Assembly (NCBI RefSeq): GCF_003334815.1 | Contig: NZ_QOWO01000071.1 | Reading direction: 5' to 3' (one strand) | Source: Escherichia coli | Lineage (GTDB): Bacteria; Pseudomonadota; Gammaproteobacteria; Enterobacterales; Enterobacteriaceae | DNA length: 5,879 nt | Part shown: piece after piece, positions 3,426 to 3,495 of the stretch | How positions within the stretch are numbered: the first letter of the stretch is position 1 | How the letters are laid out: each line of letters starts with the position of its first letter | Notes under the pieces: model-generated | The model's database searches: none | Told to the model about the DNA's origin: nothing | The model's input: only the letters and a program-made list of their open reading frames with translations | Position numbers and translations under genes: made by a program

Positions 3426-3466
3426 CGTCACTTAAACGACGCCTTTGCCGCTCAACCGCAAAACTG

Positions 3467-3495
3467 ACCGCTTACATCCCTAAAATAACCACTCA
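3467..3495 (+). promoter_or_regulatory. BtsR (YehT, LytTR-family) binding site: direct repeats ACCGCTTA-N13-ACCACTCA upstream of btsT
   Basis: ACCGCTTA (3467-3474), a 13-bp spacer (catccctaaaata), then ACCACTCA (3488-3495). This fits the published YehT/BtsR motif ACC(G/A)CT(C/T)A repeated with a 13-bp spacer in the yjiY promoter. A third partial copy, ACCGCAAA, lies at 3455-3462. Confidence 0.75.

Follow-up and report, generated by a model that had tools for sequence, protein, structure and literature searches.

The published BtsR repeat pair upstream of btsT (yjiY) in Escherichia coli and a conserved third repeat in register with it

The tsr-btsT locus

The window analyzed in this work, i.e., the whole stretch of 5879 bp of DNA, contains the tsr/btsT (yjiY) intergenic region of E. 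coli, the flanking genes being assigned by RefSeq annotation, and lgoT lies further upstream at the same locus. Used as a query, the 361-bp tsr-btsT intergenic sequence showed 100% identity to one E. coli chromosome, and a match to it was present in 5390 of 5426 complete E. coli genomes. With respect to K-12 MG1655 the intergenic region of the window differs at three positions, all of which are upstream of 3392, and from 3392 to 3650 the window and K-12 are base-identical, all of the repeats discussed below included. The two genes, and a promoter-like site belonging to the first of them, are located as follows:

1590..3254, minus strand: tsr (ORF list, and RefSeq annotation of the 100%-identical intergenic record and of K-12)
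3631..5781, plus strand: btsT (yjiY), pyruvate/H+ symporter of 716 aa (RefSeq annotation)
3285..3311, minus strand: sigma-28 (FliA)-type promoter-like site for tsr, TAAAGTTT-N11-GCCGAAAA, one mismatch

The annotated start of btsT is 3631 both in RefSeq and in K-12; the ORF list also gives an in-frame ATG at 3616, five codons 5' of that start, which opens a 721-aa ORF. The one mismatch of the sigma-28-type site was counted against the sigma-28 consensus, and 0.01 such sites would be expected by chance. The site, which is outside the btsT operator, is consistent with the RpoF holoenzyme SELEX peak reported between yjiY and tsr (PMC5493296). For the LytTR response regulator BtsR (YehT) no target other than btsT itself is reported, pyruvate being sensed by BtsS, and the gene is further regulated by cAMP-CRP, LeuO, and CsrA (PMC5936718, PMC5431176, PMC7730263).

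The published pair and the repeats in phase with it

Two direct repeats are found in the part of the intergenic region proximal to btsT:

3467..3474, plus strand: R2, ACCGCTTA, upstream member of the published BtsR/YehT pair
3488..3495, plus strand: R3, ACCACTCA, promoter-proximal member of the published BtsR/YehT pair

Kraxenberger et al. (2012, J Bacteriol 194:4272) reportedly described the YehT motif as a direct repeat of ACC[G/A]CT[C/T]A whose two copies are 13 bp apart. In the window R2 and R3 are separated by 13 bp (3475-3487), giving a start-to-start register of 21 bp, and the annotated btsT ATG (3631) follows 143 bp after the start of R3. The composite pattern ACCRCTYA-N13-ACCRCTYA matches exactly at 3467-3495, which is its single occurrence in the window, and it was seen in 0 of 200 dinucleotide-preserving shuffles. 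The pair thus carries the motif and the 13-bp spacer, stands upstream of btsT, and is conserved in orthologous btsT promoters, and BtsR motifs were reported to be conserved in most species tested (PMC5552118). An oligonucleotide of the Jung laboratory named 'yjiY YehT bs' corresponds to window positions 3443-3499 (PMC4847170). The sequence-only reading of this DNA had recognized here the BtsR/YehT direct repeats of the yjiY promoter with their 13-bp spacing, and that identification stands, as the match is exact and identical to K-12. Because the window is base-identical to K-12 across the repeats, the R2/R3 pair is the published YehT/BtsR operator itself, already known, and not a new member of a family; finding it therefore adds, on its own, nothing new.

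Further upstream there are three elements with a defined distance to this pair:

3447..3454, plus strand: R1, distal repeat GCCGCTCA, 7 of 8 motif positions, 20 bp start-to-start before R2
3427..3434, plus strand: R0, degenerate fourth copy GTCACTTA, two mismatches, 20 bp before R1
3403..3418, no strand assigned: CRP-type site TGTGATATGAATCACA, a perfect TGTGA-N6-TCACA and the sole such match in the window

The conservation of these elements was analyzed across btsT promoters collected by a BtsT protein scan of one genome per species. The scan gave 80 loci, from Escherichia to Rahnella, Erwinia, Pantoea, and Leminorella, 79 of which had enough upstream sequence, so that together with the window 80 promoters could be analyzed. 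Three direct repeats of the motif with no more than three mismatches in total were present in all 80 promoters, with no mismatch at all in 38 and one mismatch in 31; these and the following counts over promoters ignore kinship and are not phylogenetically independent. The start-to-start spacings between the three repeats were 20/20 in 53 promoters, 20/21 in 22, 21/21 in four, and 21/20 in one; in other words spacers of 12 bp on both sides occur in 53 of the 80 (the window being counted among the 80), and the 13-bp spacing is not universal. Triples with up to two mismatches in total were found neither in 4000 shuffled upstream regions nor in 1246 real non-promoter chunks of 450 nt taken from the same loci. 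An orthologous R1 was present in 79 out of 79 btsT promoters of other species. When conservation was calculated per column from 57 representatives of less than 85% identity, R1, R2, R3, and the CRP core approached 2 bits per column, the information content of R1 being equal to that of R2 and R3, whereas the spacers were weakly conserved. Within E. coli, R1 is a perfect ACCGCTCA (8/8) in the O157-type and hpa-type variants described below; the K-12-type R1 has a G at position 1, which places it outside the published motif. Concerning its repeat set, the sequence-only reading was correct for the published pair but missed this conserved third repeat in the 20-bp register. It is GCCGCTCA that combines motif match, 20-bp register, and conservation, and the ortholog of the distal repeat in the window is GCCGCTCA and not the eight bases ACCGCAAA next to it, which had been put forward as an extra half-site.

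The CRP-type site is held at a nearly constant distance from R1. Sites matching the CRP core at 8 or more of its 10 positions were centred 35-37 bp before R1 in 78 of the 79 other-species promoters, with one locus (L055) not reliably anchored for this distance, as well as in all of the E. coli structural variants examined; by far the most promoters have the centre 36 bp before R1, and none has it outside the range of 35-37 bp. Expression of btsT is CRP-dependent (PMC5431176, PMC7730263), and the predicted site at 3403-3418 would provide the nearby CRP site of the btsT operator. The E. coli btsT promoter was found in at least three upstream contexts:

K-12 type: tsr directly adjoins btsT upstream; about 2752 genomes
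O157:H7 type: tsr and btsT separated by a hypothetical ORF of 180 aa; about 362 genomes
hpa type: 4-hydroxyphenylacetate (hpa) genes upstream of btsT; about 2259 genomes

Homology among the three contexts begins exactly at the second base of R1 (boundary at window 3447; L003 3121-4000, L004 3915-4000), and at the same distance of 36 bp each context has a perfect TGTGA-N6-TCACA of its own. The 180-aa protein of the O157:H7 type (L003 3349-3891) had no significant match in Pfam, the best being to a TnsA-like endonuclease N-terminal domain at E = 0.11.

An alternative is that the conservation of R1 has nothing to do with BtsR and that R1 serves as the site of another factor or as a docking element linked to CRP or to the alpha subunit of RNA polymerase, in which case the operator would consist of the pair only. 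The published description reportedly names two repeats, position 1 of R1 deviates in K-12, and the fixed distance between R1 and the CRP site would allow R1 to belong to a CRP-linked element. Against this, R1 shares the 8-mer consensus, the orientation, and the 20-bp phasing of R2 and R3 in all 79 other-species promoters, a combination of features that would be difficult to account for if R1 were read by a different protein, and there is a precedent for a LytTR domain on three direct repeats in CoxC (PMC11347149). We therefore regard a role of R1 unconnected with BtsR as unlikely, and we infer that the functional unit is larger than the pair, namely an array of R1, R2, and R3 which are phased on the same helix face in steps of 20-21 bp.

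The case of R0 is different. Copies with no more than two mismatches occur at the R0 offset in 12 of 60 representative promoters, as compared to a background of 1.8% per position, and the R0 columns are poorly conserved overall; with such low per-column conservation R0 is doubtful as a general fourth repeat. A broader interpretation would see in the BtsR operator a rigid array common to the Enterobacterales, composed of the CRP site, a distance of 36 bp, three equally conserved repeats in steps of 20-21 bp, and a vestigial fourth repeat between CRP and R1, and to this we would give slightly less than even odds. Should it be true, three to four BtsR protomers, or two dimers (on R0-R1 and R2-R3), would be aligned on one helix face and would cooperate stereospecifically with CRP, and the G which K-12 has at the first base of the distal repeat would be the reason why this repeat was left out of the published two-repeat motif.

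The spacer between R1 and R2

The proposed extra half-site occupies the start of the spacer between the first two repeats:

3455..3462, plus strand: 'extra half-site' ACCGCAAA, first 8 bases of the R1-R2 spacer

As the sequence-only reading stated, and as can be read directly at 3455-3462, ACCGCAAA starts 12 bp before ACCGCTTA and is out of register. It starts 8 bp after the start of R1, which it directly abuts, and so falls outside the 20-21 bp register. Six of the eight motif positions match, the two mismatches being A for T at position 6 and A for C/T at position 7. A pattern relaxed enough to admit it, ACCRCWHA, has nine matches in the window (2.1 expected), and an identical ACCGCAAA lies inside the tsr coding region at 2062-2069; as an isolated 8-mer ACCGCAAA is unremarkable.

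The position is also di-allelic in E. coli, with ACCGCAAA in approximately 2400 genomes and CCGCCATT in approximately 2900 of the 5426, totals which are estimates from alignment identity bands and not exact counts of the 8-mers. Over 3455-3463 the two spacer alleles, ACCGCAAAA and CCGCCATTC, differ at six out of nine consecutive bases; it should be noted that this clustered replacement is present at roughly equal frequencies in an otherwise almost invariant promoter. The CCGCCATT allele is found in the hpa-type variant and in CFT073, with R1 and R2 intact. Since CFT073 combines the K-12-type upstream sequence with CCGCCATT, the spacer allele segregates, and is recombined, independently of the upstream context, the flanking repeats being invariant. 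Outside of E. coli, E. albertii carries TCTGCAAA at this position, and ACCGCAAA was absent from all other genera examined, the spacers of which are unrelated.

An enrichment of partial copies was considered as possible support for a half-site. The tetranucleotide CCGC abuts R1 in 11 of 60 representatives versus 1.45 expected from composition-only shuffles, which indicates a weak constraint on the flank of R1 and could in principle reflect contact with a protein. The enrichment vanished under a column-wise, position-specific null, CCGC next to R1 being seen in 10 of 59 representatives versus 7.6 expected after column-wise shuffling. The likeness of ACCGCAAA to the motif is explained by the 3' flank of R1, which is C-rich in all lineages (C-C-[C/G]-n-C), together with two lineage-specific bases.

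That ACCGCAAA nevertheless acts as a real auxiliary BtsR half-site of low affinity, tuning occupancy for instance through an alternative register which competes with R1, is in our opinion quite improbable. It does have the ACCGC and the final A of the motif, several genera show partial copies directly next to R1, at offset +7 or +8, in excess of composition-only shuffles, and the flanking DNA is reported to be of importance for LytTR regulators (PMC4847170). These points have to be set against its location, abutting R1 and 12 bp before R2, against the replacement by CCGCCATT in about half of the E. coli genomes between otherwise invariant repeats, against its absence in the other genera and the weak conservation of its columns, and against the loss of the enrichment under the position-specific null. 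ACCGCAAA therefore departs from what would be expected of a half-site in motif match, in register, and in conservation both within and between species. We conclude from these comparisons that ACCGCAAA should be regarded as the start of a spacer and not as an independent BtsR site, and it should not be annotated as a site. The sequence-only reading had left the choice between a low-affinity auxiliary site and coincidence, and it is the coincidence which is favored, as the element is polymorphic in E. coli, absent from other genera, and drawn from a C-rich flank.

Core promoter and leader

Downstream of R3 two further conserved elements can be distinguished:

3499..3521, plus strand: conserved block ATTTACC-N3-CTTTACGCGCGCG, between R3 and the candidate -10, gapless across genera
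3528..3536, plus strand: candidate extended -10 TGgCAACAT (hexamer CAACAT, 3531-3536), the best conserved -10-like position

An alignment anchored on R3 showed gapless conservation through ATTTACC-N3-CTTTACGCGCGCG and TCTGGCA..AT. At the position of CAACAT both A2 and T6 are present in 68% of 60 representatives, and TG at -15/-14 likewise in 68%. The best TTGACA-like positions in the upstream block are the hexamers TTTACC (3500-3505) and TTTACG (3510-3515), both of which are off the canonical spacing of 16-18 bp from the candidate -10. Within the block (3499-3521) the TTTAC element occurs twice, at a distance of 10 bp, and an alternating CGCGCGCG run, likewise conserved, comes after the second copy. 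Candidate roles for it are a surrogate of the -35, a site for another factor, or a structural element.

Starting from the candidate extended -10, transcription of btsT would begin near 3543, and relative to that position the repeats would be centred at about -51.5, -72.5, and -92.5 and the CRP site at about -132.5. Downstream of the repeats a simple sigma-70 scan detected no promoter, an outcome often seen where transcription depends on an activator, and the published genome-wide TSS data consulted contained no entry for yjiY/b4354 and none at the expected coordinates. Two other assignments were considered. A -10 in TAACTC/AACTCT (3522-3528) combined with TTTACC as -35 was not preferred, A2/T6 being present in only 10-13% of orthologs, and a sigma-54 reading of the conserved CTGGCA was rejected by eye, there being no GC element at the -12 spacing.

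In the 5' leader of btsT an insertion of about 124 bp was observed in approximately 2065 E. coli genomes, just after the small GGCTTCGGCC hairpin (window 3590-3599), with the insertion point at about 3599/3600 of the window (L004 4153-4292). It is also present in some loci of Escherichia, E. albertii, and Citrobacter (L005, L007, L017). The inserted element is a dispersed repeat, detected in all 5426 E. coli genomes at a median of nine places per genome, and presumably resembles the ERIC/IRU intergenic repeat.

Interpretation

Taken together, the data favor a btsT operator composed of the R1-R2-R3 array, a weak R0, and a CRP site at a fixed position, with ACCGCAAA representing spacer only; we put the probability of this model as a whole at roughly 85%. 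That the repeats are a chance resemblance devoid of any regulatory role has, apart from the shortness of 8-mers, nothing in its favor, and it is already refuted by the conservation of the array across the Enterobacterales and by the identity of the sequence to the characterized K-12 promoter, the absence of the composite pattern from the shuffles adding to this, so that we give it practically no weight.

In the mechanism that would follow from the preferred model, extracellular pyruvate is sensed by the kinase BtsS, and BtsR binds the ACC[G/A]CT[C/T]A direct repeats upstream of btsT and activates transcription, both of these steps being taken from the literature. Activated BtsR would occupy phased repeats on one helix face, as described in the literature for the proximal pair and as suggested here for R1. 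Cyclic AMP-CRP would act as co-activator from a stereospecifically fixed upstream position, where the dependence on CRP comes from the literature and the spacing from this analysis. The array would then feed a weak, probably extended -10 promoter near 3528-3536 used by RNA polymerase, and CsrA acts on the btsT mRNA, as known from the literature.

The refinement proposed here is modest; it consists of a third repeat, a CRP site at a fixed distance, and the finding that ACCGCAAA is not conserved, and the primary paper may already have tested these sequences. Its use lies in pointing experimenters and annotators to 3447-3454, a segment whose conservation is as strong as that of the published pair and which is in phase with the CRP site. 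If R1 were confirmed, the assumed stoichiometry and architecture of BtsR would have to be revised, perhaps together with those of other LytTR activators, and the result would be relevant to the design of biosensors based on PbtsT. For tests, E. coli itself already offers the natural spacer alleles and the three upstream variants.

Relation to known operators

The closest system is the YehT/BtsR site of K-12 yjiY, which has the same gene pair, the same bases, the same motif, and the same 13-bp spacer between R2 and R3, and which does not differ from the window in R2/R3. With respect to its published description, what is added here is the third repeat R1, the fixed distance between the CRP site and R1, and the 12-bp spacer which is the commoner one in other genera.

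The operator of YpdB (PyrR) in the yhjX promoter, GGCATTTCAT-N11-GGCATTTCAT, belongs to a paralogous LytS/LytTR pyruvate system of E. coli (PMC4847170). Like BtsR/btsT it has direct repeats in a 21-bp register and serves a single transporter gene, the differences being in the sequence of the repeat and in the regulator; YpdB-D53E did not bind a yjiY fragment which was used as control DNA (PMC4847170). Cooperative and sequential ('AB-BA') binding of YpdB has been reported at yhjX (PMC4847170). Inspection by eye of the yhjX oligonucleotide from that work (PMC4847170) showed a degenerate copy of GGCATTTCAT, with about 6 of 10 positions, some 20-21 bp upstream of site A, which hints at a third in-register repeat in the YpdB operator too.

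The LytTR-type operators of AgrA, PlnC/D, ComE, and VirR consist of pairs of 9-11-bp direct repeats which are 11-13 bp apart (PMC4847170). They share with btsT the paired direct repeats, with a different repeat consensus, whereas btsT has three, possibly four, phased copies and in addition a phased CRP site. A further parallel to the btsT array is that of CoxC at PcoxB in Afipia carboxidovorans, where a LytTR domain is likewise bound to three direct repeats (PMC11347149); CoxC is, however, a repressor with repeats that overlap the -35 box, whereas BtsR is an activator and its repeats lie upstream of the promoter.
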